Origin: an uncultured Gammaproteobacteria bacterium
Lineage (GTDB): Bacteria > Patescibacteriota > Patescibacteriia > UBA9934
DNA: 52,902 bases
Direction of reading: 5' to 3'
Assembly (NCBI GenBank): GCA_964613815.1
Contig: CAZTKG010000003.1
Location: forward strand, 1-52,902
Below the pieces are notes generated by a model. The model was not told the origin of the DNA, made no database searches, and saw nothing but the letters and a program-made list of their open reading frames with translations. Shown here one piece after another: positions 18,536-34,652 of the stretch (positions are counted from its first letter, which is position 1; each line of letters opens with the position of its first letter). Both the position numbers and the translations under genes were made by a program.

Positions 18536-18624
18536 GATTCCCTCTGGGTTGTAAATGTGCGCTCCAACCTTGGCGGAATTGCATTATCTTGTCAATCGTG
18601 TTTCAGTGATATCAAATACTATCT

Positions 18625-20157: not shown

Positions 20158-20230
20158 CCAGTCTTGACCCCTCCTTAATAAATGTGACAAAATCGATCAC
20201 GCAAAGTGATCTTTCAAACTGGAGCTATTT

Positions 20231-21022
20231 ATGAGCACTGACCATGGCATTTCCCGTTCCGAAACCGACTACGTCGTGAACGCGGCCGGCGGGAACGGAA
20301 CCGCAATCCACCTGGTGGATACAGATCATGACCGCGCATGGTGTGAGCGCGAAGGCGTTGCACTCATGCAGGAGGAAAAAGATGTCGCAGAGCAGTGCGG
20401 CTTCCTCAATCCGCATACTGGTCATTTCGAGATGGCCGGTGGAGAGTTCTGCGGAAACGCAGCTCGTTCTGCGGCGATGATTCTGTCGCTTGTCCGTGAT
20501 GATGAAGACGAGATCGACTTCGATGTCTCCGGCTACGACGGCACCGTTCATGCCTCCGTGGATTGGCTCGATGGCCCTCGCGCACACGTTCGAGTGACTT
20601 TCGACAATCTGCCCGCAAAAGCTGTTCCTGTCGATGTGGAGGGGGCTGAGAACGCCTGGCTGGTTGATCTTGGCGGGATTGTACACGTCGTGGTCGAGGA
20701 TCGGTTCCCGGCGACGACGTTCCAAGAGCGGCACCGGAGCATCACCGAGAAGCTCGGCCTCGGCCAGCGCGGCTGCGTTGGCGTCTGCTGGCTCAAGCGC
20801 GGTGAAGACGGGCAGCCGGATCATATCGATCCTGTCGTCTGGGTTCGCAGTATCTCGTCGTTCTTCTACGAGTCCGCGTGTGGCTCTGGCAGCATCGCTG
20901 CTGAAGCCGTCACTCATCACTCAAGCATCGAACAGCCGTCCGGTGAGGTGATCTACGTTCACCGCCGCGGCAAGGCCGTTACCCTCCGTAGCGACATGGA
21001 GATCATCCGTGCACACTCGTAG
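20231..21022 (+). CDS. DapF-fold amino-acid racemase/epimerase, histidine racemase (CntK)-like
   Basis: GGNGT, EQCGF, MAGGEFCGNA, PVVWV...ESACGSG and EQPSG mirror the motifs I recall from S. aureus CntK (SGN, EQVGF, MSGNEFCGNA, ENSCGSG, HQPGG); both catalytic Cys present. Confidence 0.8.
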   Translation: MSTDHGISRSETDYVVNAAGGNGTAIHLVDTDHDRAWCEREGVALMQEEKDVAEQCGFLNPHTGHFEMAGGEFCGNAARSAAMILSLVRDDEDEIDFDVSGYDGTVHASVDWLDGPRAHVRVTFDNLPAKAVPVDVEGAENAWLVDLGGIVHVVVEDRFPATTFQERHRSITEKLGLGQRGCVGVCWLKRGEDGQPDHIDPVVWVRSISSFFYESACGSGSIAAEAVTHHSSIEQPSGEVIYVHRRGKAVTLRSDMEIIRAHS

Positions 21023-21584
21023 CCCACTGCCCATTCGACGCGTCACCGATGTCGATGATCCCGCTCGTGATGGATTCATCGATGTGTACAAAGAGGCCTT
21101 TGGTGGCCCTCCGTACAACGAAGATCAGCCCCGTGATTGGGTCCGTGAGCACGTGTGGGGTTTGCATGTTTCTCATTGCCTGTTCGTCTGCGAAGACACT
21201 GACGGCTCTGTGATCGGCATGTCTTGCGCGCTTCCCGTGCTTGCGCCGGGAGCTGAGGCGTGCGGAAACTTCCTCTCTGGCTGCAGCGGGATCCCGTTTG
21301 ATTTGAGGGATGCAATCTATATGTCTGAAGTTGGCGTCGCTGTGCGCGCTCGTCGACGTGGACTTGGTACTCGTCTCATCCGCGCTCGGATTGCCTGGGG
21401 TCTCGAGAACGACTTTGGACACTTCGTGATGCGTACCGCGAGTGCAGGATCTCATTCTGCCGGCATCTACCTTCGCATGGGATGCACACAACTCCCCCAT
21501 GTGCAGAACGTTGGCGGCGAAGACGTCGCTTCAGCGAGTAGTCATCGCATCTATATCTTTGGCCCGACCAGCTTGGCGGCCTAG
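21009..21584 (+). CDS. GNAT family N-acetyltransferase
   Basis: YMSEVGVAVRARRRGLGTRL acetyl-CoA motif A; GIYLRMGC motif B. Confidence 0.85.
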   Translation: MHTRSPLPIRRVTDVDDPARDGFIDVYKEAFGGPPYNEDQPRDWVREHVWGLHVSHCLFVCEDTDGSVIGMSCALPVLAPGAEACGNFLSGCSGIPFDLRDAIYMSEVGVAVRARRRGLGTRLIRARIAWGLENDFGHFVMRTASAGSHSAGIYLRMGCTQLPHVQNVGGEDVASASSHRIYIFGPTSLAA

Positions 21585-21606
21585 ATACGAGCTTCGGCTC
21601 GTTTTT

Positions 21607-22260
21607 TTATCGGTAAATTTTGTCGTAAATTGCCTTTGCCTTTTTGTAATACCAGGCCCACTCTTTATCTCCGTAAGAAAAATGCCACCATTCATAGTCA
21701 AAAGGAGCGAATCCTTGTTTCATGAGCAGCTCTCTTAGAATGGTCCTATTTTCCTTTTGTACCTCGCCTACATCCTTCGCAAAGAACTGAATCTTTTTCG
21801 TATTTGAGAAATCTCCGACTCCTGTCCCCATGTCAATTTCCTTGCCGTTTATTGCTATTGTAATGTCTATTGCGCCTCCCGTGATGTGCCCCGCAACATC
21901 TGGAGATGCGGAAAGTAAATGAGCTGTCTTTACGAGGTCTTTTTCCGGCACTCCCTGCTTCCGAAATTCTTCAACTCGCTTGTTGAAATACATCTCTTGA
22001 ACGTCCGGATGCCTGTATGAATAAGCCAAGTCTAGCTGTGCCTCTGGCATGAGTTTAATTAACTCTTTTGCTGCTTTTTTAAGCATTTTTGCCACTTTTT
22101 TCCGAATCAAAAAGTCTTCACCGATCCGCGATATCATGTCTTTTTTTCTGTAATTACATGCGATTTCTGGTGCGAACTCTTGAACTACAACCAATTCTTC
22201 CCCACATTCTGTCGTTGGGATATCAACCAGATCTTTATATTGCGCGAATCTTGGCTCCAT
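21607..22260 (-). CDS. M15D D-alanyl-D-alanine dipeptidase-like (VanX/DdpX family)
   Basis: SYRHPDVQ, GHITGGAID, DMGT, YEWWHFSYGD; visibly AT-rich compared with the flanks. Confidence 0.88.
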   Translation of the reverse strand: MEPRFAQYKDLVDIPTTECGEELVVVQEFAPEIACNYRKKDMISRIGEDFLIRKKVAKMLKKAAKELIKLMPEAQLDLAYSYRHPDVQEMYFNKRVEEFRKQGVPEKDLVKTAHLLSASPDVAGHITGGAIDITIAINGKEIDMGTGVGDFSNTKKIQFFAKDVGEVQKENRTILRELLMKQGFAPFDYEWWHFSYGDKEWAWYYKKAKAIYDKIYR

Positions 22261-22327
22261 ATATTCTTCGTATTGACTTTCATCTTAGCCCCTGTAATCT
22301 ATTAGTGCAACTTTTTTTGGAGGAAAG

Positions 22328-22896
22328 ATGTCTCTTCCTGACGGTATCTTGATTCGTCGCGTGACGGATCCGAGGGACCCTGCACGTGCGGGGTTTGTAC
22401 GTCTGTATCGCGAGGCGTTTGCGGCAGCTCCCTATCATGAGAGCTGGACTGTCGACGAGGTTCGCGGGACTTGGGCAACGTATGTTCCGCATGGCTTGTT
22501 CGTTGCGGAAGATGCGGATGGTGAGGTGATCGGGTTTGGGTGTGTGAAGCCGCTTCAGATCGGTGATGAACCGTCCACGTCCGTGCAGTACATGATCGAT
22601 CACCATGACGGCACGCTGCCGTTTGATCCGACGTCAACGGCGCACATGGGCGACGTTGCAGTGGATGCGATGACGCGCGGACTTGGGATCGGGACGGCGC
22701 TTGTACGTGCGCGGCTTCGGTGGGCGCATGACGAAGGGTTTGACTGCAGACCGCTCATGAAGGGTCGCATTCTGCGGGGATCTACCGTCGACTTGGGTGC
22801 CAAGAGCTGCCGGTGCGGATTCCGACGAGCATCTACAACAAGCCTTCGGCGAATACGCACAACATTGTTCTTTGGCGCCTGGTCTGCCCGTTCTAA
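22328..22896 (+). pseudogene. GNAT family N-acetyltransferase paralog with a frameshift near 22745-22750
   Basis: N-terminus is paralogous to 21009..21584 (IRRVTD..DPAR.GF..Y.EAF...PY). The conserved tail TAHEGSHSAGIYRRLGCQELP is in another frame that ends at TAA 22894-22896. Confidence 0.75.
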
Positions 22897-22967
22897 GACC
22901 TTCAATCACGAAACTTCTCGTGATTTTTTTGTATAAAAAGGCCCTCCTTGTGGGAGGACGTGTGCTT

Positions 22968-24212
22968 CTAGGCCGCGAAGCGATTGAGGAGCTCGATGAG
23001 GCCGTCGCGGTAGGCGACAAGACTGTCAAGGTCGACCCATTCGTCTGGGCTGTGAGCGTTTCCGTTCATGGGCGCCATACAAATTGCTGTTGCGTCTGGA
23101 CACTTCGATGCCAGCATAGCGATGTCGATGTAGCCGAAGTCATGCGGACTCACACGTGCGCCGCCGTGTACAGCTTCGGTAGCCGAAGTGATGTCGTCAG
23201 GAGCGCCATCTGGAGATATATAGTGGTCATGAGCGAAGCGCTCTACGAAAAGCTCGATCCTGCATGTATGCAAGCCGCCCTTCTTCACGTGCTGCTCGTT
23301 CCACCTCGCAACCGCCTCTTCTACTACTTTACGCACAGCGATCATGCTGACGTGTGGACCTCCGGGACGGATATCAACGCGCGCCCAAGCTGCATTCGGG
23401 ATCTTATTCGCCTTGAACCCCACGTTCGGGATTGGCGCCTCGAGATCCTTGACGTCGTCGACCTTGACTGGGATCTCTGCCCCAGGTTCAAGCGAGCCAG
23501 CCTTGATAGCAGCCACATTGCAGGAAGTCGGGATATCCCCACCTGCATTCTCGCAGAAATCCTGCAAGGCCCTCACCGTCTCACACATTGCGAAAACGGC
23601 GTTCGCCCCCTCGTGTTGACGGGCCGCGTGACCACTGTTGCCTGCGATGACGAAGTCGAACTCCATACATCCGCGGCATGATCTGAGAATCTTGGCCTTT
23701 GCGCCGCAGACGCTCAGCATCTGTTGCGGACGAATCTCAGGATGATCCCGAACAAAGGCCTCCATGCCCTTGAACAACGTCTCTTCATCACTGTAGAAAA
23801 GTAGCGCGACCCTGTCGGTCCTCCCTGCTCGGCGAACGGCATCCAGGATACCTGCGATACCACCCTTTGCATCACTGGCGCCGAGAGCGTAGTAGCGTCC
23901 GTTCTGAATGACGTGCTCCTCTACCGTCCAACCACTTGACGGCTCGACCGTGTCGAGGTGTCCAATGATGAGGAGCTCAACCTCCTTCTCTGAGCCACTG
24001 AGAGCGAGTAGATTTGGGCGCTGGACCTCCCCGTCTTGAATGTTCTCGATACTGACCTGAAGCCATGGCGCGTGCTCTTCGAGATAGAGCTTGATCGCGA
24101 TGGCAAATTCATGTTCACTTGCCTTGTCTTTTTTCCAGAAGCTCGGGATGCGACAGAGTGCATCGACAAGCTGGATGACAGATTCGGAATGAATGGCTTG
24201 GCTATGCGTCAT
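22968..24212 (-). CDS. M20 family metallopeptidase/deacylase (ArgE/DapE-like)
   Basis: GHLDTV, GASDAKGG, SDEE, GHAA, AHSPDEW; start placed at ATG 24212. Confidence 0.88.
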   Translation of the reverse strand: MTHSQAIHSESVIQLVDALCRIPSFWKKDKASEHEFAIAIKLYLEEHAPWLQVSIENIQDGEVQRPNLLALSGSEKEVELLIIGHLDTVEPSSGWTVEEHVIQNGRYYALGASDAKGGIAGILDAVRRAGRTDRVALLFYSDEETLFKGMEAFVRDHPEIRPQQMLSVCGAKAKILRSCRGCMEFDFVIAGNSGHAARQHEGANAVFAMCETVRALQDFCENAGGDIPTSCNVAAIKAGSLEPGAEIPVKVDDVKDLEAPIPNVGFKANKIPNAAWARVDIRPGGPHVSMIAVRKVVEEAVARWNEQHVKKGGLHTCRIELFVERFAHDHYISPDGAPDDITSATEAVHGGARVSPHDFGYIDIAMLASKCPDATAICMAPMNGNAHSPDEWVDLDSLVAYRDGLIELLNRFAA

Positions 24213-24314
24213 AGATCTTCTCTTGTGAAAGGTGCGCCTAGATCTTACCTGAAATTGATCGTAAAACAAGAAATATGTCAACAGCAAAAAACCCCCTCGT
24301 AAGAGGGAGTCTTT

Positions 24315-24391
24315 TGGAGCCGATGAGCGGATTCGAACCGCTGACCTGCTGTTTACAAAACAGCTGCTCTAACCAGCTGAGCTACATCGGC
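24315..24391 (-). tRNA. trnT: tRNA-Thr (TGT)
   Basis: GCCGATGTAGCTCAGCTGGTTAGAGCAGCTGTTTTGTAAACAGCAGGTCAGCGGTTCGAATCCGCTCATCGGCTCCA. Confidence 0.96.
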
Positions 24392-24400
24392 AGGCTTGTT

Positions 24401-24462
24401 AAAATGCCTTGAGATCGTTCCGTGCCTCCGGTCCTCGTCCCGAAACGATCTCAAGGCATTTT
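24401..24462. repeat. hairpin element, short copy (19-bp inverted arms)
   Basis: AAAATGCCTTGAGATCGTT ... AACGATCTCAAGGCATTTT; the loop contains CTCCGGTCCTCG, shared with 39334..39439. Confidence 0.85.
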
Positions 24463-24554
24463 TCCTGCGCCTGCCCCGAGGCGATTAAATACACTGAGAT
24501 CGTTCCGTTTCTGGATACATTGGCAAAAAAACAGCTAGCAAGACAGGCGCCGGA

Positions 24555-24653
24555 AAAATGCTCTGTCATCGTATTTCTTTCGAGCACCGCAGTAAGACGT
24601 ACTAAATGTACGTCGTCGAGGAGCGCAGAAAAAATACGATGACAGAGCATTTT
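24555..24653. repeat. hairpin element, long copy (22-bp inverted arms)
   Basis: AAAATGCTCTGTCATCGTATTT ... AAATACGATGACAGAGCATTTT, with an internal ACGTAC/GTACGT stem. Confidence 0.85.
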
Positions 24654-24663
24654 ACCAAGCCTG

Positions 24664-24749
24664 TGGTGGGCCGGGACGGATTCGAACCGCCGAAGGCGAA
24701 TGCCAGCAGGTTTACAGCCTGCCCCGTTTGACCGCTTCGGTACCGACCC
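24664..24749 (-). tRNA. trnY: tRNA-Tyr (GTA)
   Basis: GGGTCGGTACCGAAGCGGTCAAACGGGGCAGGCTGTAAACCTGCTGGCATTCGCCTTCGGCGGTTCGAATCCGTCCCGGCCCACCA; long variable arm. Confidence 0.96.
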
Positions 24750-24821
24750 CTTTTTGATTGAGCGTGGGGGCAGTGTACAAAATCTTCCAAAGATCGTCAA
24801 CAAAAATACCGCCCCCTTTTA

Positions 24822-25619
24822 TCAGGAGCGGGAATTGCGGATTTCGTCGATCTGCTGTGCGTATTCCTTGCGGATGAAGCGGTCGTAGACAGCGGTCCAA
24901 GCTTCGGGGAGGCGCATATCGCGGTAGCGGTCGCTCTCGTAAAAGCTATGGAGCAGGACGGGCTGTCGGACACTGACAAGGATGCGCATGAACATGTCTG
25001 GCGACATGGCGATACAGAGCTGTACTGCATCTTCCATGAGACGCGTCGCGATCCTTGGGCTACGATCGTGGATCGCGGCTGCTGTGTAGATCATGCGCGA
25101 CATCGCGCGAAGGATGGTGAGGGTGCGGAACTCTGCGATCCTGCAGACGGCAGCGATCTGATCTTCTTTACTGAAGAACTCCATGTCGACCGCTTCACCG
25201 TCGTCGCCTTCGATGACGAGAACACCGGCTCCCATGAAGCGCTGAGGGCCTCGATTGAGGGCAAACTCGTCGCTTGCCGGATCTACACCAGCAAAGCGGA
25301 GCCACCTTGTCGCGAGTGCGTAGTGCATCCCTGTACTCCTCGTTGGCGCTCTGGCGATAGCGCGGAGAATCTTCTCGATGTCCTCGCTCTCGATCACCTG
25401 CTCGGTGATTTCTGACACGCTCCGCTCTGCGAGTGCCTCGCGCCTTACGATGGCAATGCGGTCGATGTGCCAGATGATGGCGAGGAAGATTGCTTCGGCG
25501 CAGACGAGACCGAGCGTGATGATGGAGAGATCCATCTTCTTGTTGTGGATACTGTAGCCTGCAGAGCCGATGATGCCAAGGAAGAGGAGGATACAGATGA
25601 TGACGATGATTTTGCGCAT
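24822..25619 (-). CDS. two-TM hypothetical protein, paralog array member 1
   Basis: Two N-terminal TM helices joined by NKKMDLSII; C-terminal LCIAMSPDMF...LPEAW. Confidence 0.75.
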   Translation of the reverse strand: MRKIIVIICILLFLGIIGSAGYSIHNKKMDLSIITLGLVCAEAIFLAIIWHIDRIAIVRREALAERSVSEITEQVIESEDIEKILRAIARAPTRSTGMHYALATRWLRFAGVDPASDEFALNRGPQRFMGAGVLVIEGDDGEAVDMEFFSKEDQIAAVCRIAEFRTLTILRAMSRMIYTAAAIHDRSPRIATRLMEDAVQLCIAMSPDMFMRILVSVRQPVLLHSFYESDRYRDMRLPEAWTAVYDRFIRKEYAQQIDEIRNSRS

Positions 25620-25723
25620 TTCTGCTCCTAATGAAAGAAAAGAACTGGTTTATTTAACAGTATTGTGGAATTTTGTCAATTGAATAAAAAATCCTACGCC
25701 TTCTTGGGCGTAGGTGCTGCAGG

Positions 25724-26425
25724 CTACGGGGCCTGCTGCTTGCTGCGGTAGCTCTGGGCGACCTTTGTGATCATGCTCGACCAAGGTTCGCCAATCTTCG
25801 TGACCGTGTTGATGCGCTTGACCTCGAGGAGATCCAGCGCTGCCTGTAGCGGGGCACTTGCCTCGATGAAGACCTCGAGCTGGCCGGGAGCAATGAGGCG
25901 ACCGGTCATGAGGAGGTCCATCGCGATGTCCATGACCTTACCCTCAGACGCAGGCGTGGCTTGCGCTGCCTGGGTCCAGGTTGCGACCTCGGCTTCGATC
26001 TCGCTCTTGAGTTCCGTCATCCGCTTGAAGACGAGCTGCGTGTGACCGAGGGAGAGGTCTGCCATGCGGTCCAGGACCGAGACCATGAAGTCGACGCTGC
26101 GAGGCCACTCGATCCGCGGCGGGCGGTCGAACTGACCGCTCATGAGGGAGGCGATCTGAGCGTAGCTGCCGTCCTTGCCGGGCGATGCGGTCGCGACGGC
26201 CATGATGAGCTCTTCGGCCTTCTTGACGACAGTCATCGCGCGGCTCTCGAGTGCGTTCGCCCAGATGATCTCGATGATTCCTGAGACCGACGTGAGGGAG
26301 AACAGGAGGAGCGTCAGCTTGGCGACACTGCCCTTGTTGTCGATGTCGTAGCTGAGCGTGAGCGCGGTGAGAGAGGCGCAGACGACGAGAATTGCCCTGT
26401 TTGCCAGGCGAAGTTTGTTTGACAT
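25724..26425 (-). CDS. two-TM hypothetical protein, probable paralog array member 2 (most divergent)
   Basis: Two N-terminal TM helices with an NKG loop; C-terminal LIAPGQL...IGEPW; start placed at ATG 26425. Confidence 0.7.
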   Translation of the reverse strand: MSNKLRLANRAILVVCASLTALTLSYDIDNKGSVAKLTLLLFSLTSVSGIIEIIWANALESRAMTVVKKAEELIMAVATASPGKDGSYAQIASLMSGQFDRPPRIEWPRSVDFMVSVLDRMADLSLGHTQLVFKRMTELKSEIEAEVATWTQAAQATPASEGKVMDIAMDLLMTGRLIAPGQLEVFIEASAPLQAALDLLEVKRINTVTKIGEPWSSMITKVAQSYRSKQQAP

Positions 26426-26457
26426 GCAAGACTCCTGTGGAAGGTGCGTTGGGCCTG

Positions 26458-26486
26458 AAGTTAGCATTTTTTGTGGTTTTTGTCAA
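26458..26486 (-). promoter_or_regulatory. sigma70-type promoter
   Basis: TTGACA-N17(ending TGC)-TAACTT upstream of ATG 26425. Confidence 0.6.
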
Positions 26487-26536
26487 GGTTTTTGCGCGCG
26501 CAGCAAAGAAAAAAACCCCCTTGACGGAGGTGTGGT

Positions 26537-27193
26537 CTAGCTCTGTAGTGCCCTGAGCCAGACATAATGTAGCTCCATATGCCTCTGACTCACGAGCCAT
26601 GCAACGACGCGCTGTGTAGGCTCATCTGCCGATCGGACGATCTGAGCGAAGCTTGCCGGAGACACCATTCGGGACACGTGCTTGATTCGAATGGCTGCAG
26701 ACGCGATTTTTACGGAGTCTTCTGACGACAAATCCGCCGTCTCGTGACCCGCAAGGCCTTCGATCGTGCTGCACTCGTAACGAATTGCGGACGCCACCTG
26801 TCGCATGGTGTTCTGCAGGATTGTACGAAGAACACGGGATGAAGAGTCCGCGTTCTGAAATCCTTGCTGGGCCAGCGAGACGTGGAGGTGCTCTACATCC
26901 ATGGCTCCGATCGAGAGCCTCCCCTCCATGTAGGCGGTGAGAAGCGGGAAGACCAGCATGGCATCTGGATCGTTGATCCTGGGCGCAGACCTATCTGCCC
27001 CGATCTTCTTCTTGTTTCTATAGCGCGTGACCGCCTTGCTGACCACGACGACGCCGAGAGCGCCGATGACCACGATCGCCATGTCGTGCTTCTTGCTGAC
27101 GAGACTGATGGTGAGCGAGACGATCGTAGTGGCGTAGGCGAGCCATTCGACCCAACGCTGGGCGCGGATGAAGAATGCTTTGATGCGGCTCAT
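26537..27193 (-). CDS. two-TM hypothetical protein, paralog array member 3
   Basis: Two TM helices joined by SKKHDMAIV; C-terminal VSRMVSPASF...LHYVW. Confidence 0.75.
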   Translation of the reverse strand: MSRIKAFFIRAQRWVEWLAYATTIVSLTISLVSKKHDMAIVVIGALGVVVVSKAVTRYRNKKKIGADRSAPRINDPDAMLVFPLLTAYMEGRLSIGAMDVEHLHVSLAQQGFQNADSSSRVLRTILQNTMRQVASAIRYECSTIEGLAGHETADLSSEDSVKIASAAIRIKHVSRMVSPASFAQIVRSADEPTQRVVAWLVSQRHMELHYVWLRALQS

Positions 27194-27237
27194 CTGTATC
27201 TCCGTTGAAGGTGCGTTTCTCTTTTAGAAGAGGTCTG

Positions 27238-27266
27238 ACGTTAGCATTTTTCTTCATTACTGTCAA
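27238..27266 (-). promoter_or_regulatory. sigma70-type promoter
   Basis: TTGACA-N17(ending TGC)-TAACGT. Confidence 0.6.
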
Positions 27267-27303
27267 GGTCTTTGCCTATAAAAAAGAACCAGCTCTTGCT
27301 GGC

Positions 27304-28008
27304 TCAGGACGATGTGTTTGGCCTCGGTGTTCTGCCCTCTGCATAGGCCATGACGACCTCTCGCCAGGGCTCGGGGAGCTGAAATTCCGCGCCCCTCAGA
27401 AAGGTCTTGATGTCTTCTGATCCGCGCTGGCGCAGAAGGCTGTAGAGGACATCTGGTGCCATAGAGGTGCAGAGCTGCTCGAACACGGGCAGTCCACTGC
27501 TTGTCACCGCGCGTGCTGCGTGGTCTGGGCTCAGTGTTGCGTCCCTTGCGGCGCTCATGACTTCTAGGAGCGCTCCGAACGCCCTCCTGTTCATTGCGAG
27601 ATGCACTATCACCGCGGCATGGACGAATGTCACCGCAGCCTCTCCCCTTGGGGATTCTCCGGTACGTGCTACTCGAATGAACAGCTCTCTTGCCGTCTCC
27701 AAGGTCATGAAGTCCCGATTGATGAGGAATAGACCGATCATGCCCTCGCTATAACCGATTGATTTGTGAGAGACTTGGTTCAGCTCATCGAGCTCTTGCT
27801 GGAGCTGTCGTGATCTTGCCTCTGCCTGCTCTACGTCAGGTATGACGTAGCGGCGGAAGAGGAGTTCAGAGATGAAGAGAGCGGCAGCGATGGCGCCGAT
27901 GATGATGGAAAGGTCGTGCCTCTTGCTCATCACGCTGATGGCGACGATGAGGGGGATGACGCCGTATGCGGCCAGGCGTCCGTAAAAGATCTTCTTGCTC
28001 GTGAGCAT
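27304..28008 (-). CDS. two-TM hypothetical protein, paralog array member 4
   Basis: Two TM helices joined by SKRHDLSII; C-terminal LCTSMAPDVL...LPEPW. Confidence 0.75.
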   Translation of the reverse strand: MLTSKKIFYGRLAAYGVIPLIVAISVMSKRHDLSIIIGAIAAALFISELLFRRYVIPDVEQAEARSRQLQQELDELNQVSHKSIGYSEGMIGLFLINRDFMTLETARELFIRVARTGESPRGEAAVTFVHAAVIVHLAMNRRAFGALLEVMSAARDATLSPDHAARAVTSSGLPVFEQLCTSMAPDVLYSLLRQRGSEDIKTFLRGAEFQLPEPWREVVMAYAEGRTPRPNTSS

Positions 28009-28048: not shown

Positions 28049-28077
28049 AATTTAGCATCCTTTTCGCTTATTGTCAA
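28049..28077 (-). promoter_or_regulatory. sigma70-type promoter
   Basis: TTGACA-N17(ending TGC)-TAAATT. Confidence 0.6.
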
Positions 28078-28151
28078 TGATTTTTGTGTTCAGACGAGCT
28101 TGACATGGTGCCTGTGTTATGCTATTCTCGTGGTCCTCTTTGGAGCTCCTC

Positions 28152-28382
28152 ATGCCCTCTTCATCTATCTCTTCTCTGTCCCGTGTCGTCCCCGGCGTCG
28201 GCCCTGGTGTTTCCGATTCTGCCGTGCGTCAGGACCTCGCTCGTCGTGGATTCCCGACGCCTCAGCCTGTGACTCCAGCGCCCGCTTCGGCCACCGATCA
28301 GGCGACGGTCGACGACCGCGATCTGCCCAGGCCTGGCCCGCCGCTCGACGTCTATGGCCGCGATGGCCGATTCGGTCGATAG
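28152..28382 (+). CDS. small Pro/Ser-rich hypothetical protein (76 aa)
   Basis: Upstream TTGACA-N17-TATGCT, GGAG RBS, and a downstream hairpin + T-run (AACGCTCCGAA...TTCGGGCGTTTTTTT). Confidence 0.45.
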   Translation: MPSSSISSLSRVVPGVGPGVSDSAVRQDLARRGFPTPQPVTPAPASATDQATVDDRDLPRPGPPLDVYGRDGRFGR

Positions 28383-28467
28383 CGCCCCCTCTCAACGCTC
28401 CGAATGTTCGGGCGTTTTTTTTGATGTGCTGGGAGCACATCAAAAAAACGCCCTCCTTGCGGGAGGA

Positions 28468-28836
28468 CTAGGTGGTCACTGGAGCGACGGTGATGCTGGG
28501 CCGCTCGTTGTCGCGGACCATGCGTATCTCGTGGACGATGTGGAACAGGGTCATGAGCGTCGCAGCTCCTGTAGCGAAGCCGTTTGCGATCGCGGGGTCG
28601 ATTCCTTCCAGCCTTGTGACGTATAGAGAGAGGATGAATCCTACGCCAAGCCAGATGCGTAAGAACTGCATGTTCATGGGCAGATCTCTGCCCTCACTGC
28701 GGCGTTCTTGGATGAAGATGGCCATGAAAGCAAGGCCTGCGATCGCCTTCATGACCAGACTGTGCCAGATCAGCATCGATGAGATGAGCATGACGAGGTA
28801 GGTGAGGAAGCGAAAGAGCCGGTGTGGTCCGAACAT
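28468..28836 (-). CDS. small membrane protein
   Basis: 122 aa with about 4 hydrophobic segments; GGAGAA RBS. Confidence 0.65.
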   Translation of the reverse strand: MFGPHRLFRFLTYLVMLISSMLIWHSLVMKAIAGLAFMAIFIQERRSEGRDLPMNMQFLRIWLGVGFILSLYVTRLEGIDPAIANGFATGAATLMTLFHIVHEIRMVRDNERPSITVAPVTT

Positions 28837-28965
28837 GTGTTCTCCGGGAATGTACGTTAAGCCTGGCGGATTTTTTGGGTTTTGTCAAGAGTGGAAATAA
28901 ATAACCCCTCCGGATTCCAGAGCCCTTGCGGGATGGAATCGGAGGTGGCGAGGGAGTAGCGCGCG

Positions 28966-29817
28966 CTACTCGGGGGCGAGGGCAGCGACGCGGGGCGTGA
29001 TCGGCAGGAACTCGGGGACGGTGAAGTTCGGGTTCCGGTTGCCGATGTTGAGGCCCTCGACGACGATGCCGCTCGTCCTGGTCCGGTCCGGACCGATCGT
29101 CGGGATGAAGGTTCCGAACTGGCCCTTGGCGATGGCGTAGCGGAGGCCGGCCATGGCCATGCCGGGAAGCTCGCCCATGGACAGGGCCTTGAGGAGCTGC
29201 GGGAACTGCCAGAGCAGGGCCAGGAGCTCGATGCCCATGGAGCTCGTGCTCCTCGCGTCGGCGATGGAGCGTCGAACGGCGTGGCTGCTGAGATCGCAGG
29301 CGAACCACTCCAGGCCGGTGGCGACAGCTCGACTCCGACGGAACGGTCGGAGCGCGTCGGGGAGCTCCATCCAGACCGTGCCCGGGATCTCGAGCTCGGC
29401 GCCGAGGCGGCGGAGGATCTCCATGTTGGCGACGAACTCTCCCTGGATTTCGTCGGCGAGGTTGATGCGGACGCCGAGGAAGCTCATCGGCCCCTTCGGC
29501 CAGGACGGCGCTGCGGCGATGATGCGATCGATCTCCGCTTCGGGGATCTCGAGGTCGTACGCGTAGGCGGCGGCCTCGACCTGAGCGACGATGTCCTCGG
29601 GGTCCTTCTGGAAGGGGTTCTCGAGGTCGAGACGCAGGGCGTGCGAGATGGCCTGGGTCATCAGCTCCTTGCTGTCGGGGTCGCGCATGCGACCGTCGAG
29701 GCGATCGATGTCGACGTTGTTCGCGATCACGGTCGCGAGTCCGAGGACGTTGCCTGTGTAGGCGCGGAAGCGTCGCTGATCTGCGACTTCCTGAGCGGCG
29801 GTGGATTCTGCGGACAT
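28966..29817 (-). CDS. hypothetical protein
   Basis: Strong GC-rich codon bias; consensus promoter upstream; start placed at ATG 29817. Confidence 0.72.
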   Translation of the reverse strand: MSAESTAAQEVADQRRFRAYTGNVLGLATVIANNVDIDRLDGRMRDPDSKELMTQAISHALRLDLENPFQKDPEDIVAQVEAAAYAYDLEIPEAEIDRIIAAAPSWPKGPMSFLGVRINLADEIQGEFVANMEILRRLGAELEIPGTVWMELPDALRPFRRSRAVATGLEWFACDLSSHAVRRSIADARSTSSMGIELLALLWQFPQLLKALSMGELPGMAMAGLRYAIAKGQFGTFIPTIGPDRTRTSGIVVEGLNIGNRNPNFTVPEFLPITPRVAALAPE

Positions 29818-29872: not shown

Positions 29873-29901
29873 ATATTAGCAGACTTCGTCGATTTTGTCA
29901 A
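29873..29901 (-). promoter_or_regulatory. sigma70-type promoter
   Basis: TTGACA-N17(ending TGC)-TAATAT. Confidence 0.6.
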
Positions 29902-29915
29902 TGCCCTGACCCTTC

Positions 29916-29992
29916 CCCATCCCGACCGAAGTGGGGGGATCTTCCGAAGGTATAGCGCAAACGCAAGATCCCTCCACTTCGGTCGGGATGGG
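29916..29992. repeat. REP-like inverted doublet
   Basis: 28-bp arms CCCATCCCGACCGAAGTGG(G/A)GGGATCTT in inverted orientation (29916-29943, 29965-29992), one mismatch. Confidence 0.85.
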
Positions 29993-30195: not shown

Positions 30196-30296
30196 GACCC
30201 TTACACGACTGCCGAAAATCACGGCAGTCGTTTTGTATAAGGGTCCGCATCTGAAGCGCTTAGGCGCGGGCCCTGATGCAGGGCTCGCGCTCTTTT
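30196..30296 (+). promoter_or_regulatory. structured 5' leader with terminator-like hairpin
   Basis: Stem GACCCTTA..GACTGCCG/CGGCAGTC..TAAGGGTC (30196-30245), then GCGCGGGCCCTG/CAGGGCTCGCGC + TCTTTT ending 15 nt before the racemase ATG. Confidence 0.5.
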
Positions 30297-30311
30297 ACAC
30301 GAGGAAAACGA

Positions 30312-30992
30312 ATGAAGACGATTGGAATTGTTGGCGGTCTTGGGCCGCTTGCGGGCATCTCGTTTGCTCAGCATTTGGTTGAAATCGGACAGGAAATGGG
30401 GTTTGCCGCAGACCAGCAGCATGCTCCGTGGATCCTGATGAATCGTCCTGGCGATGTGCCGGATAGAACAGATTCGCTCCTTCTGGGTGGCGTGGACTTT
30501 GTCCCGCCAATCCTGGACCAGCTCGCAGCGCTCAGGCGCTCGGGTGCGGACGTCGGGGTGATTGCGTGCAATACGGCGCATGTAGCTTGGGAGATGATTC
30601 GTCAGGCGGCGCCGATGCCGATGATGAGCATTGTTCACGAGACGGTTCGGTACGTTTGTGATCGATATCCGTCTGGAAACATTGGATTGTTGGCGACGGA
30701 TGGATCTTTGAAGCTTCGGCTGTATGCAGATCCACTTGAAGCGGCTGGCTACGAGGTTTTGACGCCTCGTTCGCGCTCTGTGCATGACGCTATTCTGGCC
30801 ATTAAGGCTGGGCGTCTCATGCATGCGCGGCGGATTCTGAGTCGTTGCGCTGGTGAACTGGAAGATCGTGACTGCTCGGCGATTGTGCTTGGCTGTACCG
30901 AGATTCCGCTTGCTCTGAAGTCTTTCCCTACCCCCCTCATCAACCCCACGCGTATTTTGGCTGAGGCTGCGATGCGCTTTTCCCTGGAGTAA
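30312..30992 (+). CDS. aspartate/glutamate racemase family protein
   Basis: MKTIGIVGGLGP, VPDRT, IACNTAH, GLLATDGS, VLGCTEIPL; both catalytic Cys present. Confidence 0.92.
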   Translation: MKTIGIVGGLGPLAGISFAQHLVEIGQEMGFAADQQHAPWILMNRPGDVPDRTDSLLLGGVDFVPPILDQLAALRRSGADVGVIACNTAHVAWEMIRQAAPMPMMSIVHETVRYVCDRYPSGNIGLLATDGSLKLRLYADPLEAAGYEVLTPRSRSVHDAILAIKAGRLMHARRILSRCAGELEDRDCSAIVLGCTEIPLALKSFPTPLINPTRILAEAAMRFSLE

Positions 30993-30995
30993 GAC

Positions 30996-32369
30996 ATGTC
31001 TCGCAATAGATTTGCTGCGGACTACATTTACGAATACCTCAACCAGAGCGCCATTTGGCTGCGCTGCGATGGAGGTACCGAGATCGGGCATTCTGCCCTG
31101 TACCTTCCCCATTCGGCCGTTTTGCGGCTCGAGCACTCAGAGGAGAGTGTTCGAGTGGCGACCGGCGAGATCCTTGCGGAGATCGCCCAGGTGACGCACT
31201 CGAACGGGACGGCATCGGTTCATCCGGCTGGCAACAGCTTGGAGGCCGTGCAGGCGGCGGTGATGCAGCTTCACGCTGCTGATCCTGGTCGGCATACGCT
31301 GCTGTTTGAGGGGTACTTTGCCTCAAGCGCAAATGAGCATCGGGACCGGAATCTGGCGCTTGCGCACTGGTGGGAAGAGATGGATCCGCGCCACACCGTG
31401 ATCCATCCTGACCCGCAGGCCAGTGACCGCTGGAACGACAAGACGCACTTCCGGTCGATTTCGAAGGCGATTCTTGGTGACCATAGCGTGCCTCATGGGT
31501 TCAGCTTGATCTCGCCTCAGTTTGCTGATGTTCAGCGGCTCGGTCACCTGCTCTTTGAGCGCGGGGCTGGGTCGGTGATTCTGAAGCGGGCTGGTGGCGG
31601 TGGACTCACGAACCACATCTGGGGGAGCGCGGCGGCGTTTACCGAGAGCGACTTTGACCGGCTGTGCAAGGCGGATCTGAGCGGTGGGCACGCGAACTGG
31701 ATGTCGGTGGAGGCGTGGATTCCCTGGGAGATCAGCGGGATCTGCAGCTTCTTCGCCAGTTCTGATCACTCGATCCGGCATATGCATCTCGCTCAGCAGA
31801 TGCTGTCGCCGAAGAGCGCTGGGTTCATTGGTTCCCAGTCCTGGACGAGCCTTTCTGAGGCCGACCAGGAGGCGGTGATTCTGCACTCGAGTCGACTGGT
31901 TGAGAAGGCCTACCGTGATGGGATCGAAGGGTTCTGCGGGGTGGACTTCGTGGTCTGTGCTGAGGGGGTAACAACGGGGATTCCCCTTCCCTCTCGGCGC
32001 AAGCTGCTGTTCATTGAGGCGACCCCTCGCATCGGTGGACACAACCAGGAGTCCAAGCTGGCGGCGATGGTTGCGCATGGGCGCGGGATCGGTCTGCATG
32101 ACATGGCTTGGGCTCGGGTTGGGAACAGGCCCTGGGCTGGCGTTGGTCGCGATGAGACGTATGTGGCGATGAAGGCTCTTCAGCGCGGGCAGACGACGCG
32201 GCTGATTGCATCGTCTACGCTCGATCATGGGCCGTGCATGCTGCTTGACTGCAACCACCGCAAGCCGAGCATCTACGACGCGATCTTTCTTGCGTGCCGG
32301 AAGAAGAAGCTGGCGGGGATGGAAGAGGCGTTGCGGCGGCTTGATGATGCTGGCGTGCTTCGGACGTGA
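30996..32369 (+). CDS. ATP-grasp superfamily ligase (PGM1/peptide-ligase-like)
   Basis: WNDKTHF, VILKRAGGGG, SVEAWI, GFCGVDF, FIEATPRIGG correspond to ATP-grasp landmarks (the usual E-x-N-x-R is E-A-T-P-R here). Confidence 0.7.
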   Translation: MSRNRFAADYIYEYLNQSAIWLRCDGGTEIGHSALYLPHSAVLRLEHSEESVRVATGEILAEIAQVTHSNGTASVHPAGNSLEAVQAAVMQLHAADPGRHTLLFEGYFASSANEHRDRNLALAHWWEEMDPRHTVIHPDPQASDRWNDKTHFRSISKAILGDHSVPHGFSLISPQFADVQRLGHLLFERGAGSVILKRAGGGGLTNHIWGSAAAFTESDFDRLCKADLSGGHANWMSVEAWIPWEISGICSFFASSDHSIRHMHLAQQMLSPKSAGFIGSQSWTSLSEADQEAVILHSSRLVEKAYRDGIEGFCGVDFVVCAEGVTTGIPLPSRRKLLFIEATPRIGGHNQESKLAAMVAHGRGIGLHDMAWARVGNRPWAGVGRDETYVAMKALQRGQTTRLIASSTLDHGPCMLLDCNHRKPSIYDAIFLACRKKKLAGMEEALRRLDDAGVLRT

Positions 32370-32422
32370 TTCCTTGGAGTGACAGGTCGTGTTTTTATGC
32401 GGCCTGTCGGTTAATTTTTTCT

Positions 32423-33490
32423 ATGAATGCATTACGACAACATGGTGTGCAGTTTGGTGCCTTGCCGGCGACGGAGAATAATCATATCGCGGATATTGAC
32501 GGTGTTGGGATTGGGCATGTGACTGTGCATGATGGAGGGATTCACACCGGAATTACGCTTGTGAAACCTCATGATGGGGATGTGTTTCGCGAAAAGGCGT
32601 TTGCGGGGTTTTATGCGGGGAATGGGTTTGGGAAGTGCGTTGGATCTACACAGGTCGAGGAGCTTGGGAATATTGAAAGCATTCTTGGGCTGACGAATAC
32701 GCTTGCGGTTGGGACGGTTTTGCAGGAGCTTGTTCGTTATCATGTGCATCTTGATAAGGATATTGGCTCGATTAACGTCTTTGTTGGGGAGACGAATGAT
32801 GGATTTTTGAATGACATCTCTTCCCTGCCGATTACGGCGGATCATGTGAAAAAGGCTGTTTATGATGTTCGTGAGAGGAATTTTTCGCAGGGGGCGATTG
32901 GCGCTGGAGCTGGGACTCGGGCGTTTGGGTTTAAGGGCGGAATCGGGTCTGCTAGCCGTGTGATAGAGCCTGTTTTTACGAAGACGCATGAGCGGTTTAC
33001 GCTGGGGGTTTTGATGCAGTCGAATTATGGTGGGTTTTTGCGGTTGCACGGGAAGGAGATTTGGCGACGGCTTGGGGGGAATCGGATGCAGACGGAGATT
33101 GATGCGTTGAAGGCGGGAGGGTCTTGTATGATTTTGGTAGCGACGGATGCACCGCTTTTACCTCGGCAGTTGAAACGGCTAGCGAGGAGAGCTTTCTCTA
33201 CGCTCACTCGGACAGGATCATTCATCTCTCACGGAAGCGGTGATTATGCACTTGCGTGGAGCACGCATCCCAGCTCTCGCGTGCGCACGGATGATTATTC
33301 TGCTCGGTGGAATCAGGGGCCGTACCTTAGTGATGCAAGCATTGATCCGTTTTTTGCGGCGGTCTGTGATGCGACGGAGGAGGCACTTTGGAATAGCATC
33401 ACGACTTCCGAGACGGTGCATGGGTATAAAGGAGAGATCAAAAGATTAACTTGTGAAGAAATTCTTGAAGCGATGAACTATGATTACTGA
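32423..33490 (+). CDS. dmpA: P1/S58 family aminopeptidase (DmpA-like D-aminopeptidase)
   Basis: NHIADIDGVGIGH, NGFGK, LTNTLAVG, ETNDGFLND, GAGAGTRAFGFKGGIGSASR, G|SC autocleavage site, VATDAPL, HGSGD. Confidence 0.88.
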   Translation: MNALRQHGVQFGALPATENNHIADIDGVGIGHVTVHDGGIHTGITLVKPHDGDVFREKAFAGFYAGNGFGKCVGSTQVEELGNIESILGLTNTLAVGTVLQELVRYHVHLDKDIGSINVFVGETNDGFLNDISSLPITADHVKKAVYDVRERNFSQGAIGAGAGTRAFGFKGGIGSASRVIEPVFTKTHERFTLGVLMQSNYGGFLRLHGKEIWRRLGGNRMQTEIDALKAGGSCMILVATDAPLLPRQLKRLARRAFSTLTRTGSFISHGSGDYALAWSTHPSSRVRTDDYSARWNQGPYLSDASIDPFFAAVCDATEEALWNSITTSETVHGYKGEIKRLTCEEILEAMNYDY

Positions 33491-34652
33491 CATACAACAA
33501 GCTCTTCGTGATAGCGGCATTGATACCTGGCTGCTTGTGAACTTTCGGCATCGGAATAATTTGATGAATGAGTTGTTTGGGCTGGATACGAGGTCTACGA
33601 TGTCTCGGCGGTGCGCGTATGTGATCCCTGCTGACGGGGAGCCTGTGAAGATTTTGCATACCATTGAGCAGGATCAGCTCCCTGATCTTGATGGCGCTGT
33701 TGAGATCTATTGTGGCTGGCGGGAGTATGAGGCTGCACTCATGAAGGCTGGTGGGGCTGGGCGCGTGATTGCGATGGAATATTCGCCTCATAATGCGATT
33801 CCTACGATCGCGACCGTGGATGCCGGGACGGTTGACTTGATGCGATCGACGGGAGCTCGGGTTGTGTCTTCTGCGGATTTAGCGCAGCTGTTTAATGCGG
33901 TTTGGAGTTACGAGCAGTATGAATGTCATTTGCGGGCAGCTCGCGTACTACAGGCCTGTAAGGATGCGGCGTTTGGAGAGATTCGTCGGGTGGTTGATGA
34001 GGCTGGTGAGGTTCGTGAGTATGCTATTCAGCAGTTTATGATGCGGTTTATGAAGGCGCGCGGAATGGTGACGGATCATGCGCCGATCGTTGCGGCGAAC
34101 GGGAATAGTGCGCGGCCGCATTATGCGCCTTCTGCTCATGATAGCGCCGTGATTAGGGATGGGGATTTTGTGCTTTTGGATCTTTGGTGCAAGGAGAAAT
34201 CGGTAGGATCTGTTTATGCAGATATTACGTGGACGGGATCTTTAGGCGCTGCTTCTGATCGGCATCGTGAGATTTTTCGTATTGTTGCTGAGGCGAGGGA
34301 TGTGGCGCTTGCGTTTGTGCGAAGATCCTTTAGTGCTGGTCGTGATGTCAGCGGTGCTCAGATCGATGATGTTTGCCGTGGAGCCATTGAACGTGCTGGG
34401 TATGGCAAATATTTTATTCATCGGACTGGGCACTCCATTGGGGAGGAGTGTCATGGGAATGGAGCGAATATTGATAATTTGGAGACGAAAGATGTGCGGA
34501 AAATTTTGCCAATGACGTGCTTTTCGATTGAGCCTGGAGTGTATTTGCCTGGGGAATTTGGCGTGCGGAGTGAGATTGATGTGTTCGTGCATGCGGATGG
34601 GCGCGTGGAGGAGACTGGGAGCGGGGTTCAGCGGGAGATTTTGGAGATATAA
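33480..34652 (+). CDS. M24 family Xaa-Pro aminopeptidase-like protein
   Basis: N-terminal creatinase-like domain; PHY, LLDLW...YADITWT, HRTGHSIG, SIEPGVY, GVRSEID. Confidence 0.9.
   Translation: MITDIQQALRDSGIDTWLLVNFRHRNNLMNELFGLDTRSTMSRRCAYVIPADGEPVKILHTIEQDQLPDLDGAVEIYCGWREYEAALMKAGGAGRVIAMEYSPHNAIPTIATVDAGTVDLMRSTGARVVSSADLAQLFNAVWSYEQYECHLRAARVLQACKDAAFGEIRRVVDEAGEVREYAIQQFMMRFMKARGMVTDHAPIVAANGNSARPHYAPSAHDSAVIRDGDFVLLDLWCKEKSVGSVYADITWTGSLGAASDRHREIFRIVAEARDVALAFVRRSFSAGRDVSGAQIDDVCRGAIERAGYGKYFIHRTGHSIGEECHGNGANIDNLETKDVRKILPMTCFSIEPGVYLPGEFGVRSEIDVFVHADGRVEETGSGVQREILEI

Follow-up and report, generated by a model that had tools for sequence, protein, structure and literature searches.

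A tandem array of four divergent orphan genes with predicted membrane hairpins

Four consecutive minus-strand genes, here termed A to D, represent a genuine, if fairly ordinary, case of lineage-specific gene expansion. The explanation that best accounted for the observations overall, and to which we give somewhat less than an even chance, is that they are lineage-restricted tandem duplicates encoding a family of orphan all-alpha proteins that lie in the cytoplasm and are tethered to the membrane. In bacteria of the candidate phyla radiation (CPR), whose interactions with hosts and competitors are little understood, membrane proteins that are lineage-specific and have no assigned role are numerous. 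The array offers a compact and well-delimited example, with four cassettes that appear to be independently transcribed, a conserved turn and very divergent, presumably cytoplasmic domains; it also documents rapid divergence following tandem duplication in a reduced genome.

Genes, cassette signals and genomic setting

Gene A (24822-25619; minus strand, like all features of the array and its flanks given below) encodes 265 aa, with a transmembrane (TM) hairpin at aa 4-52 followed by a 213-aa soluble helical part, and was identical on 12 public contigs. Gene C (26537-27193) encodes 218 aa (hairpin at aa 18-52, then a basic 166-aa soluble part of pI 9.7) and gene D (27304-28008) 234 aa (hairpin at aa 12-51, then a 183-aa soluble helical part). 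The sequence-only reading that preceded this study had listed four consecutive ORFs of 218-265 aa; all were recovered (265, 247, 218 and 234 aa), the second one being revised here. The ORF of gene B extends up to an ATG at 26467 (247 aa); because this codon falls inside the -10 box of the promoter serving B itself, the start was set at ATG 26425, most likely giving a 233-aa product (25724-26425). A GGAG site is found upstream of ATG 26425, and public gene calls for B were mostly of 233 aa. The N-terminal TM helices of B occupy aa 11-26 and 37-59 and are separated by a loop (DIDNKGSVAK) longer than in the other members. The four genes are almost certainly genuine: their codon usage was of the coding type, the called frame scoring highest among six for every gene with log-likelihoods of 0.17-0.33 (0.30 for A), which matched the range of conserved genes (0.13-0.36) in the whole 52.9-kb stretch of DNA analysed (the window).

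Each gene is bracketed by a TTGACA-N17-TAAnnT promoter and a GGAG motif 6-9 nt upstream of its ATG on one side, and by a hairpin with a T-run on the other. The promoters of B (26458-26486, TTGACA-N14-TGC-TAACTT), C (27238-27266, TTGACA-N14-TGC-TAACGT) and D (28049-28077, TTGACA-N14-TGC-TAAATT) matched the local consensus perfectly, and that of A (25651-25679) reads TTGACA-N17-TAAATA. Predicted intrinsic terminators follow A (24809-24831), B (25693-25714), C (26515-26531) and D (27286-27305), and cassette spacing was 780-811 nt. The presence of a near-consensus promoter for every gene suggests that A to D are transcribed steadily and strongly, each independently. As this consensus recurs throughout the genome (12 matches in the window), common -35/-10 elements are by themselves no proof of cassette duplication. 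The 5' regions of B (26435-26499, comprising promoter flanks and 5'UTR) and C (27202-27277) were homologous to each other, sharing 44 nt at 80% identity plus a UTR block, AACGCACCTTC(C/A)AC(A/G)GAG (blastn E=5e-7; nhmmer E=7e-5 against the whole window). No other promoter pair in the window came near this match.

The GlyRS of the genome displayed 72-74% identity to those of Patescibacteria MAGs and all of its 80 best loci belonged to CPR, identifying the marine host, at the level of this marker sequence, as a Patescibacteria organism. As previously noted, the array adjoins a tRNA-Tyr(GTA) gene (24664-24749), which begins 72 nt past the stop codon of A and has its own promoter-like site (24772-24800). 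Peptidases (M20 peptidase), racemases, GNATs, tRNAs and orphans make up the neighbourhood. Pfam scans of proteins encoded in the window revealed no toxin, phage, secretion or mobile-element gene near the array, and no CBASS, retron, UG/Abi reverse-transcriptase or SMODS/SLOG gene was found within the window. Beyond D lies gene E (28468-28836; promoter 28860-28888, terminator 28450-28468), which encodes an orphan protein of 122 aa and about four TM helices. Its cassette follows the array layout and its 5'UTR weakly resembles that of B (nhmmer E=0.02); no family membership with A to D was found. Gene F (28966-29817) codes for a 283-aa soluble orphan, also in an array-type cassette, for which no homologue was found anywhere; its promoter at 29873-29901 indicates that ATG 29817 is its true start.

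Judging from the sequences of two further pairs in the window, this genome is prone to tandem duplication: two tandem orphans occur at 34695-36643 (32% identity, E=7e-32), and two tandem GNATs share 41% identity. The orphan pair, an example of the lineage-specific families of tandem paralogues found in symbionts with reduced genomes, resembles the array in its orphan status, tandem arrangement, own consensus promoters and high GC3. Yet, its products are secreted and still 32% identical, whereas those of A to D are membrane-anchored and display 15-28% local identity or less.

Hairpin, soluble domains and relatedness

In agreement with the sequence-only reading, all four proteins have two hydrophobic helices within the first ~60 residues, 5-10 residues apart, followed by a soluble part of 166-213 aa. 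No other gene with the array layout was found in the window. A, C and D have a common hairpin with the turn [NS]K[KR][HM]D[LM][SA]I[IV], and the three loop strings reported earlier are indeed present: NKKMDLSII in A (aa 26-34, 25518-25544), SKKHDMAIV in C (aa 33-41, 27071-27097) and SKRHDLSII in D (aa 28-36, 27901-27927). A DNA repeat, D9 (25517-25542 / 27900-27925), spans the motif of A. Smith-Waterman scores against 1000 shuffles supported hairpin similarity for C-D (z=7.8, p<0.001; hhalign E=0.0006), A-C (z=4.3, p=0.002) and A-D (z=3.5, p=0.012). Likewise, A, C and D were each other's best phmmer matches among 250 window ORFs. These sequence comparisons make a common origin of A, C and D very probable.

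A second relationship was observed at the C-terminus, where a module is shared by A (aa 171-244, 24888-25109, ...QLCIAMSPDMF...LPEAW) and D (aa 142-218, 27355-27585, ...QLCTSMAPDVL...LPEPW) only. The two segments matched in shuffle tests (z=4.2, p=0.002) and by hhalign (E=0.0015), with 28% tblastn identity over 81 aa, their alignment being taken from jackhmmer. The tails of all four proteins had been aligned beforehand. All quoted strings exist and the A-D match is significant, but those of B and C were at chance level: both scored as noise against the A+D profile, leave-one-out profiles ranked C only 28th and B 48th among ~200 ORFs, and shuffle tests of the soluble domains with B and C gave p=0.17-0.72. 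MAFFT reproduced the earlier register, from which leave-one-out profiles were without signal, and no frame-shifted homology was found among A to D. The soluble domain of C resembled none of the others, and local identity within the array was 15-28% or less. The picture of a conserved anchor and tail around a variable remainder thus held for the anchor in A, C and D and for the tail in A and D only. Motif likenesses seen by eye, such as the "tails" of B and C, call for caution, as they failed statistical testing.

B was the most divergent member, and its protein resembled A, C or D at a significant level in none of the phmmer, hhalign and shuffle tests; similarity among the four therefore extended to A, C and D and left B aside. 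At the level of predicted helices, 8 of the 9 internal breaks of B fell within 5 residues of those of D at zero offset, with a correlation of 0.37 that was tied best (rank 1-2) among 233 circular shifts. Taken together, the shared layout, the homologous 5' regions of B and C and the collinear predicted helix breaks of B and D make common ancestry of all four genes likely, and we lean towards B being a diverged member of the family. AlphaFold2 modelling covered D and B and predicted both to be all-helical, at low confidence (mean pLDDT 56.7 and 41.7, respectively). The model of D comprised 11 helices and reached pLDDT 70-89 only at residues ~170-230, the C-terminal module being its sole confidently modelled part.

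The orphan status claimed for A to D was fully borne out, since a HMMER full profile search of 1.84 billion (1.84e9) representative proteins returned only the four themselves. Pfam, NCBIfam, PHROGs, PADLOC, PDB sequences and Foldseek gave no match for the array proteins, and none to a defence, phage or toxin family was found. The sole Pfam hit at E<=0.1 was DUF2512 to D (E=0.067, below cut-off), and the best PHROG hit (phrog_19686, unknown function, E=7.6e-4) covered TM2 of A only and was judged unconvincing. Word-indexed searches with D and F returned only the queries, and no relatives of the array proteins were found in IMG/VR. Phage holins and superinfection-exclusion proteins are small (<~150 aa) and expected in a phage or prophage context; this identity was rejected on the grounds of length (218-265 aa), the lack of a convincing PHROG hit and the lack of IMG/VR relatives.

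Topology, proposed origin and alternatives

Lysines and arginines on the N-tail and C-flank numbered 6, 6, 10 and 6 in the four proteins, against 2 in the loop of each. According to the positive-inside rule, the single basis of this assignment, such a distribution places the divergent domain in the cytoplasm, and an N-in/C-in topology is probable. The array would have arisen by tandem duplication of one monocistronic cassette made up of a promoter, a leader of ~45-60 nt, a GGAG site, an ORF and a terminator. Each product would be a small all-alpha protein anchored in the cytoplasmic membrane by its N-terminal helical hairpin, with both termini and the helical domain of 166-213 aa on the cytoplasmic side and the short conserved turn [NS]K[KR][HM]D pointing outward. 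The hairpin is the constrained part and is likely to direct insertion or to contact a shared membrane partner, and the cytoplasmic domains would have diverged to or past the limit of detection. As a functional guess, the four could be membrane-tethered binding or neutralising proteins of differing specificities. An immunity- or adaptor-like role is conceivable, if rather doubtful, and immunity or exclusion at the inner face of the membrane is possible.

Several other explanations were considered. That A to D are spurious ORFs, i.e. chance products of GC-rich DNA, is hardly credible: they are indeed orphans without homologues or RNA evidence, in a region containing long alternative-frame ORFs, but the called frame was picked by codon statistics, a promoter, SD site and terminator sit precisely around each of them, and motifs are conserved at the protein level. 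It is also unlikely, though less so, that they do not form one family, A, C and D carrying a mobile N-terminal anchor on soluble domains that are unrelated except between A and D, and B being an unrelated two-TM protein. The soluble domains of B and C matching nothing, the absence of frame-shifted homology and the lack of signal in profiles from the MAFFT register would fit this view; the 5' region common to B and C, the equal size, orientation and spacing of the cassettes, the collinear helix breaks of B and D and a layout found in no other window gene argue against it. The sequence-only reading had suggested a diversifying family for host recognition, phage exclusion or immunity. The first of these roles, in which the variable domain would lie outside the cell and recognise the host or partner of an episymbiotic CPR bacterium, is very improbable. 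CPR bacteria are episymbionts as a rule, the family is lineage-specific and fast-diverging, and the Lys-Lys/Arg of the loop can be read as "inside", which would leave the termini outside. Yet, the summed positive charges strongly favour N-in/C-in, and a cytoplasmic divergent domain argues against recognition at the surface. Furthermore, the soluble domains contain 0-2 Cys, the exported orphans of the window have obvious signal peptides, and population-level variation was not found in at least eight runs from two studies. The sampled population was near-clonal, with 0-3 single-residue variants per array protein, as in neighbouring enzymes, and therefore provides no demonstration of diversifying selection.

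Two further alternatives involve conflict systems, whose genes typically diverge fast. According to one of them, A to D would act in abortive infection or defence as effectors of the "2TM plus sensor" type (resembling SLATT proteins or the TM effectors of Pycsar and CBASS), the cytoplasmic domain sensing a signal upon which the hairpins oligomerise and breach the membrane. Despite this fast divergence and a layout resembling that of SLATT proteins (PMC9226505), it has very little likelihood: no PADLOC, Pfam (SLATT_1-5, DUF4231) or PHROG match was obtained even at E<=0.1-1, neither a cyclase or reverse transcriptase nor SMODS/SLOG or another sensor partner was found nearby, and four stand-alone copies with predicted strong promoters would be unusual for latent toxic effectors. 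The other alternative, a strict immunity array, is quite unlikely but deserves more weight. Each paralogue would neutralise its own variant of a polymorphic, membrane-acting toxin of competitors, the hairpin contacting a shared target in the membrane and the toxin being bound by the variable domain, as proposed for staphylococcal TsaI. The organisation matches that of TsaI arrays (PMC9484751), A, C and D have no block other than the hairpin in common, and every gene has a near-consensus promoter to itself. On the other hand, neither a toxin gene nor an LXG/Rhs/CDI domain or secretion system was found in the 52.9-kb window, no DUF443 or other immunity-family hit was obtained, there are two TM helices and not five, and variation in copy number or sequence between samples was not seen. 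In addition, the predicted location of the variable domain is the cytoplasm, yet a membrane-depolarising toxin would come from outside. Finally, we regard as very improbable a CPR-specific conflict or interface module without known counterpart, consisting either of Inc-like host-contact hairpin proteins or of a new immunity class against membrane-acting toxins. If true, recognition would take place at the conserved outward-facing turn (SKKHD), with specificity set by the fast-evolving domains in the cytoplasm.

Comparison with known systems

Chlamydial inclusion-membrane (Inc) proteins are composed of an N-terminal bilobed hydrophobic domain, in which a short loop joins two TM helices, followed by a helical soluble domain, display little or no primary sequence similarity among members and are often encoded by clustered genes; they are type III-secreted into the host vacuole membrane by obligate intracellular Chlamydiae (PMC3656976, PMC3290821). 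A to D likewise have a bilobed hydrophobic domain, with two TM helices 5-10 residues apart, as well as a helical soluble part, scant sequence similarity among members and clustered genes. Unlike Incs, they belong to a Patescibacteria host according to GlyRS, no T3SS component was found among the Pfam-scanned window genes and there is no sequence relationship; membership in the chlamydial Incs was rejected on the grounds of this host and of the lack of T3SS components among those genes. SLATT proteins, with their 2-3 TM helices, are predicted to form pores and show high mobility from one defence system to another (PMC9226505). They and other 2TM effectors share with A to D the N-terminal TM helices, the helical extension and fast evolution. 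A to D differ in being four stand-alone copies with no nucleotide-signalling or reverse-transcriptase gene nearby.

TsaI proteins (DUF443) are encoded by strings of immunity genes downstream of the T7SS toxin gene tspA in Staphylococcus aureus; the copies are tandem and non-identical, and their sole conserved block consists of the first two TM helices, the rest being highly variable (PMC9484751). Both systems thus comprise tandem non-identical membrane-protein genes with a conserved two-TM block (here in A, C and D), a variable remainder and variable intergenic regions. Several differences separate them. TsaI has five TM helices and DUF443, whereas A to D have two helices each and no DUF443 hit (Pfam, E<=0.1). 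TsaI strings follow a toxin gene, whereas no TspA/LXG-type toxin domain occurs in the window, and the CPR host, unlike that of TsaI, has no T7SS or other secretion gene among the Pfam-scanned window proteins. Divergence among A to D is also far greater than among TsaI copies. Although A to D are not members of that family, TsaI immunity arrays can be regarded as their closest analogue in organisation.

Genes of the array and their expression signals

The array consists of four consecutive minus-strand orphan genes, A (265 aa, 24822-25619), B (247 aa as called, 25724-26467), C (218 aa, 26537-27193) and D (234 aa, 27304-28008), and this tandemly duplicated set of orphans is real. Upstream of D, on the same strand, are two more orphans, E (122 aa with about four TM helices, 28468-28836) and the soluble F (283 aa, 28966-29817), and just downstream of A lie tRNA-Tyr(GTA) and tRNA-Thr(UGU) (24664-24749 and 24315-24391, both minus). 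A-D are genes with high probability. Using a codon log-likelihood trained on the conserved genes of the window, A-F scored 0.17-0.33 in the called frame (known genes, 0.13-0.36), which was the best of six for A-E.

Each of A-F forms an independent cassette of promoter, GGAG site (6-9 nt 5' of the ATG), ORF and terminator. The promoters, TTGACA-N14-TG(C)-TAAnnT, were found 45-60 nt 5' of the ORFs, on the minus strand at 25651-25679 (A), 26458-26486 (B), 27238-27266 (C), 28049-28077 (D), 28860-28888 (E) and 29873-29901 (F). Likewise, every stop codon is followed on that strand by a GC-rich hairpin and a T-run (24809-24831, 25693-25714, 26515-26531, 27286-27305, 28450-28468 and 28908-28922 for A to F, respectively). 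Since ATG 26467 of B and TTG 29901 of F fall within the genes' own promoters, the most likely starts are 26425 for B (233 aa) and 29817 for F (283 aa), in agreement with most public gene calls. The promoter consensus TTGACA(AAA)-N-TGnTAnnnT with a 17-nt spacer had 12 matches in the window (0.1 expected) and is genome-wide; therefore, the -35/-10 elements alone are no evidence for duplication. It also occurs at 1471-1499, 4368-4396, 41157-41185 and 48344-48372, and the four perfect matches of the window all lie within the A-F row. No contig of the A-F region was found in metatranscriptome assemblies of the same studies. An integron or island origin was rejected: the intergenic hairpins are plain terminators, and neither a tRNA-derived direct repeat nor an integrase was present.

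Several other elements were recorded around the row. Between D and E lies a divergent plus-strand mini-unit (28100-28424) with a near-consensus promoter (28100-28128), a GGAG site, a terminator (28399-28420) and an ORF of 76 aa (28152-28382, Pro/Gly/Ser-rich, poor codon score); its RNA showed no unusual fold (z=0.78). For the 272-nt minus-strand spacer between tRNA-Tyr and tRNA-Thr (24392-24663), folding gave a closing stem that encloses three long hairpins (-128.5 kcal/mol; z=-10 relative to shuffled sequence). In other samples polymorphism peaked here, with 40 nt inserted at 24437 and SNPs at positions 24574 and 24587. An Rfam scan of the region at E<=1 returned the tRNAs and sub-threshold matches only, with no family for this stretch, a possible structured spacer, ncRNA or small inserted element. 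Between the promoter of F and the racemase gene, 29916-29992 forms a long hairpin with 31-nt arms (94% complementary) and a sub-threshold plus-strand match to mraW-RNA (34 bits, cut-off 50). In every run, contigs were seen in which a 21-nt match of the E promoter is joined to sequence beginning at 29966, which suggests that this element recurs elsewhere in the genome.

Relatedness of the four proteins

The sequence-only reading described A-D as diverged paralogues with a two-helix layout in all four, an inter-helix loop common to three, C-termini aligned across all four, and a variable middle. The strings that it quoted are all present, and sequence comparison partly shows the proteins to be related. 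Among 250 window ORFs, best non-self phmmer matches were mutual for A, C and D (A to D, E=0.006; C to D, 0.003; D to C and A), and none was found for B. All-vs-all hhalign gave E=0.0006 for C-D (over the N-terminal hairpin of two TM helices), 0.0015 for A-D (over the C-terminal 41-45 residues), 0.08 for A-C and at least 0.3 for any pair with B. Smith-Waterman scores were tested against 1000 segment-preserving shuffles, giving for the hairpin z=7.8 (C-D), 4.3 (A-C), 3.5 (A-D) and 2.3 (A-B, p=0.03); among the soluble domains, A-D alone was significant (z=4.2, p=0.002). This A/D module (A 171-244, D 142-218) has 28% identity across about 80 residues. What stood of the earlier description is an anchor common to three members and a tail common to two. 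The C-terminal matches claimed for B and C were lost, as a profile of A and D scored both at noise level; MAFFT of the last 90 residues did recover the proposed register, but leave-one-out profiles built from it placed C at rank 28 and B at rank 48 among about 200 ORFs. No frame-shifted homology was detected among the paralogues, and an alignment of all four proved too divergent as a seed for locus scans.

B is kept in the family by three indirect lines. Its 5' region is homologous to that of C far past the promoter consensus (44 nt, 80% identity), with a common leader block AACGCACCTTC(C/A)AC(A/G)GAG; searched against the window as a whole, the match reached E=5e-7 with blastn and 7e-5 with nhmmer, other promoter pairs giving 1e-3 or worse. 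B also matches A, C and D in size, orientation and a layout encountered in no other window gene, the A-D cassettes being spaced by 780-811 nt. Finally, in AlphaFold2 models, eight of the nine internal helix breaks of B lie no more than 5 residues from those of D at zero offset (correlation 0.37, tied best, rank 1-2, among 233 circular shifts). The models were weak (D, mean pLDDT 56.7, with 70-89 only at residues ~170-230, the A/D-conserved module; B, mean 41.7), and secondary structure alone was therefore used.

Host, distribution and variation

The window is ordinary chromosomal DNA carrying frr, tpiA, holB, glyS and hisS. Its glycyl-tRNA synthetase is 72-74% identical to those of Patescibacteria (CPR) MAGs, including a 1.0-Mb chromosome, and its best 80 loci were all CPR (80/80). 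Identical sequence was found on 12 contigs of up to ~200 kb from marine/seawater metagenomes of two studies.

A HMMER profile of A-D recovered only the four themselves from 1.84 billion cluster representatives (~15 billion proteins), and a word-indexed search with D or F returned nothing beyond the query; therefore, the family has four detectable members, all in the window. Likewise, there was no usable match to the array proteins in Pfam, NCBIfam, PHROGs, PADLOC or PDB sequences, no relative of A or D in IMG/VR scans, and not one confirmed case among 115 pattern matches to the loop motif in a metagenome scan. Foldseek with the low-confidence D model against PDB and BFVD gave generic helical repeats (best E=0.4-0.8). 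Syntenic relatives were found neither in GTDB genomes scanned via the M20 peptidase nor in metagenomes scanned via a 457-aa neighbour. M20 homologues (38-45% identity) sit in a conserved HisRS/tRNA-His/M20/CntK_N (histidine-racemase-like)/GNAT/M15 (VanX-like)/HAL cluster, beside which tRNA-Tyr and hairpin-protein arrays were absent in relatives.

In the window, the array is flanked on both sides (16962-24287 and 30276-34652) by a gene cluster for the metabolism of histidine and of D-amino acids/peptides. Its first part, kept beside HisRS in distant relatives, is made up of tRNA-His, HisRS, histidine ammonia-lyase, a CntK-like histidine racemase, two GNATs (41% identical), a VanX-like M15 dipeptidase and an M20 peptidase; the other side carries an Asp/Glu racemase, the 457-aa orphan, an S58 DmpA-like and an M24 peptidase. 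Further along, at 34695-35627 and 35756-36643 on the minus strand, two more orphan paralogues stand in tandem (32% identity over 231 aa, E=7e-32); both are signal-peptide proteins, and each has its own consensus promoter (35618-35646 and 36686-36714). Two adjacent short plus-strand ORFs of 89 and 142 aa (4504-5205) resemble by eye a putative antitoxin/PIN-type toxin pair. Third-position GC was much higher in Pfam-less genes (median 0.73, 0.67-0.89) than in Pfam-matched ones (median 0.56; Mann-Whitney p=2e-6); the window's orphans are thus a distinct compositional class, scattered along the chromosome.

The earlier view of the array as 'DIVERSIFYING' was not borne out, contigs of eight DNA runs (2-15x depth) being identical across it. 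All public data yielded about seven single-residue variants: one in A (R127S), three in B (F99L, D100G, M169T), none in C, D, E or F, and one each in the M20 peptidase, the M15 dipeptidase and the 457-aa orphan. The excess in B is small (Poisson p ~0.02) and, with such tiny numbers, is as compatible with relaxed constraint as with selection. Between paralogues, saturation precludes dN/dS. The only SNPs over ~14-21 kb in other samples, 25920 and 26131, are both non-synonymous in B (M169T, F99L), the most divergent member; D100G came from a protein collection.

Predicted topology, role and known systems

Hydropathy and charge analysis gave, for A-D, two hydrophobic helices in the first ~60 residues and then 166-213 soluble residues. 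The N-tail and the 15 residues that follow TM2 together carry 6, 6, 10 and 6 Lys/Arg, and every loop carries two. The positive-inside rule is the basis for topology assignment, and this distribution predicts N-in/C-in proteins. The turn of 5-6 residues (SKKHD) would face outward and the divergent helical domain would be cytoplasmic, the anchor being constrained and the cytoplasmic domains diverged. Unlike the exported orphans of the window, the soluble parts of A-D contain 0-2 cysteines and lack a signal-peptide-only architecture; the four are therefore read as membrane-tethered cytoplasmic all-alpha proteins.

The functional suggestions of the sequence-only reading (host recognition, phage exclusion or immunity) remain unproven, and predicted topology disfavours its host-recognition part; surface recognition is accordingly very unlikely. 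We tentatively regard A-D as possible membrane-tethered binding or neutralising proteins of differing specificities, each predicted to be steadily transcribed from its near-consensus promoter. No neighbour pointed to a partner, be it the M15 (D-Ala-D-Ala dipeptidase-like), M20, M24 and S58 peptidases, the Asp/Glu racemase, the GNATs or HAL. The stricter form, an immunity array against membrane-acting toxins, has its nearest parallel in staphylococcal TsaI and is rather improbable. That A-D are 2TM defence effectors is most unlikely: the two-helix layout is shared, but SLATT-type effectors (PMC9226505) were ruled out as a family by profile searches and genomic context. The family is new but its sort is familiar, a fast-diverging lineage-specific membrane-protein array, whose interest is modest unless a partner or a phenotype turns up.

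Chlamydial Incs resemble A-D in a bilobed hydrophobic domain without sequence conservation (PMC3656976, PMC3290821), but the array's host is a CPR bacterium, and a type III system was not seen in the window. From TsaI the array departs in every molecular respect (no DUF443 match, two TM helices instead of five, no upstream toxin). Yet TsaI immunity strings are the closest case in organisation: in S. aureus they comprise non-identical membrane-protein genes in tandem, conserved solely across the block of the first two TM helices, with the variable remainder as the proposed toxin-binding part (PMC9484751).
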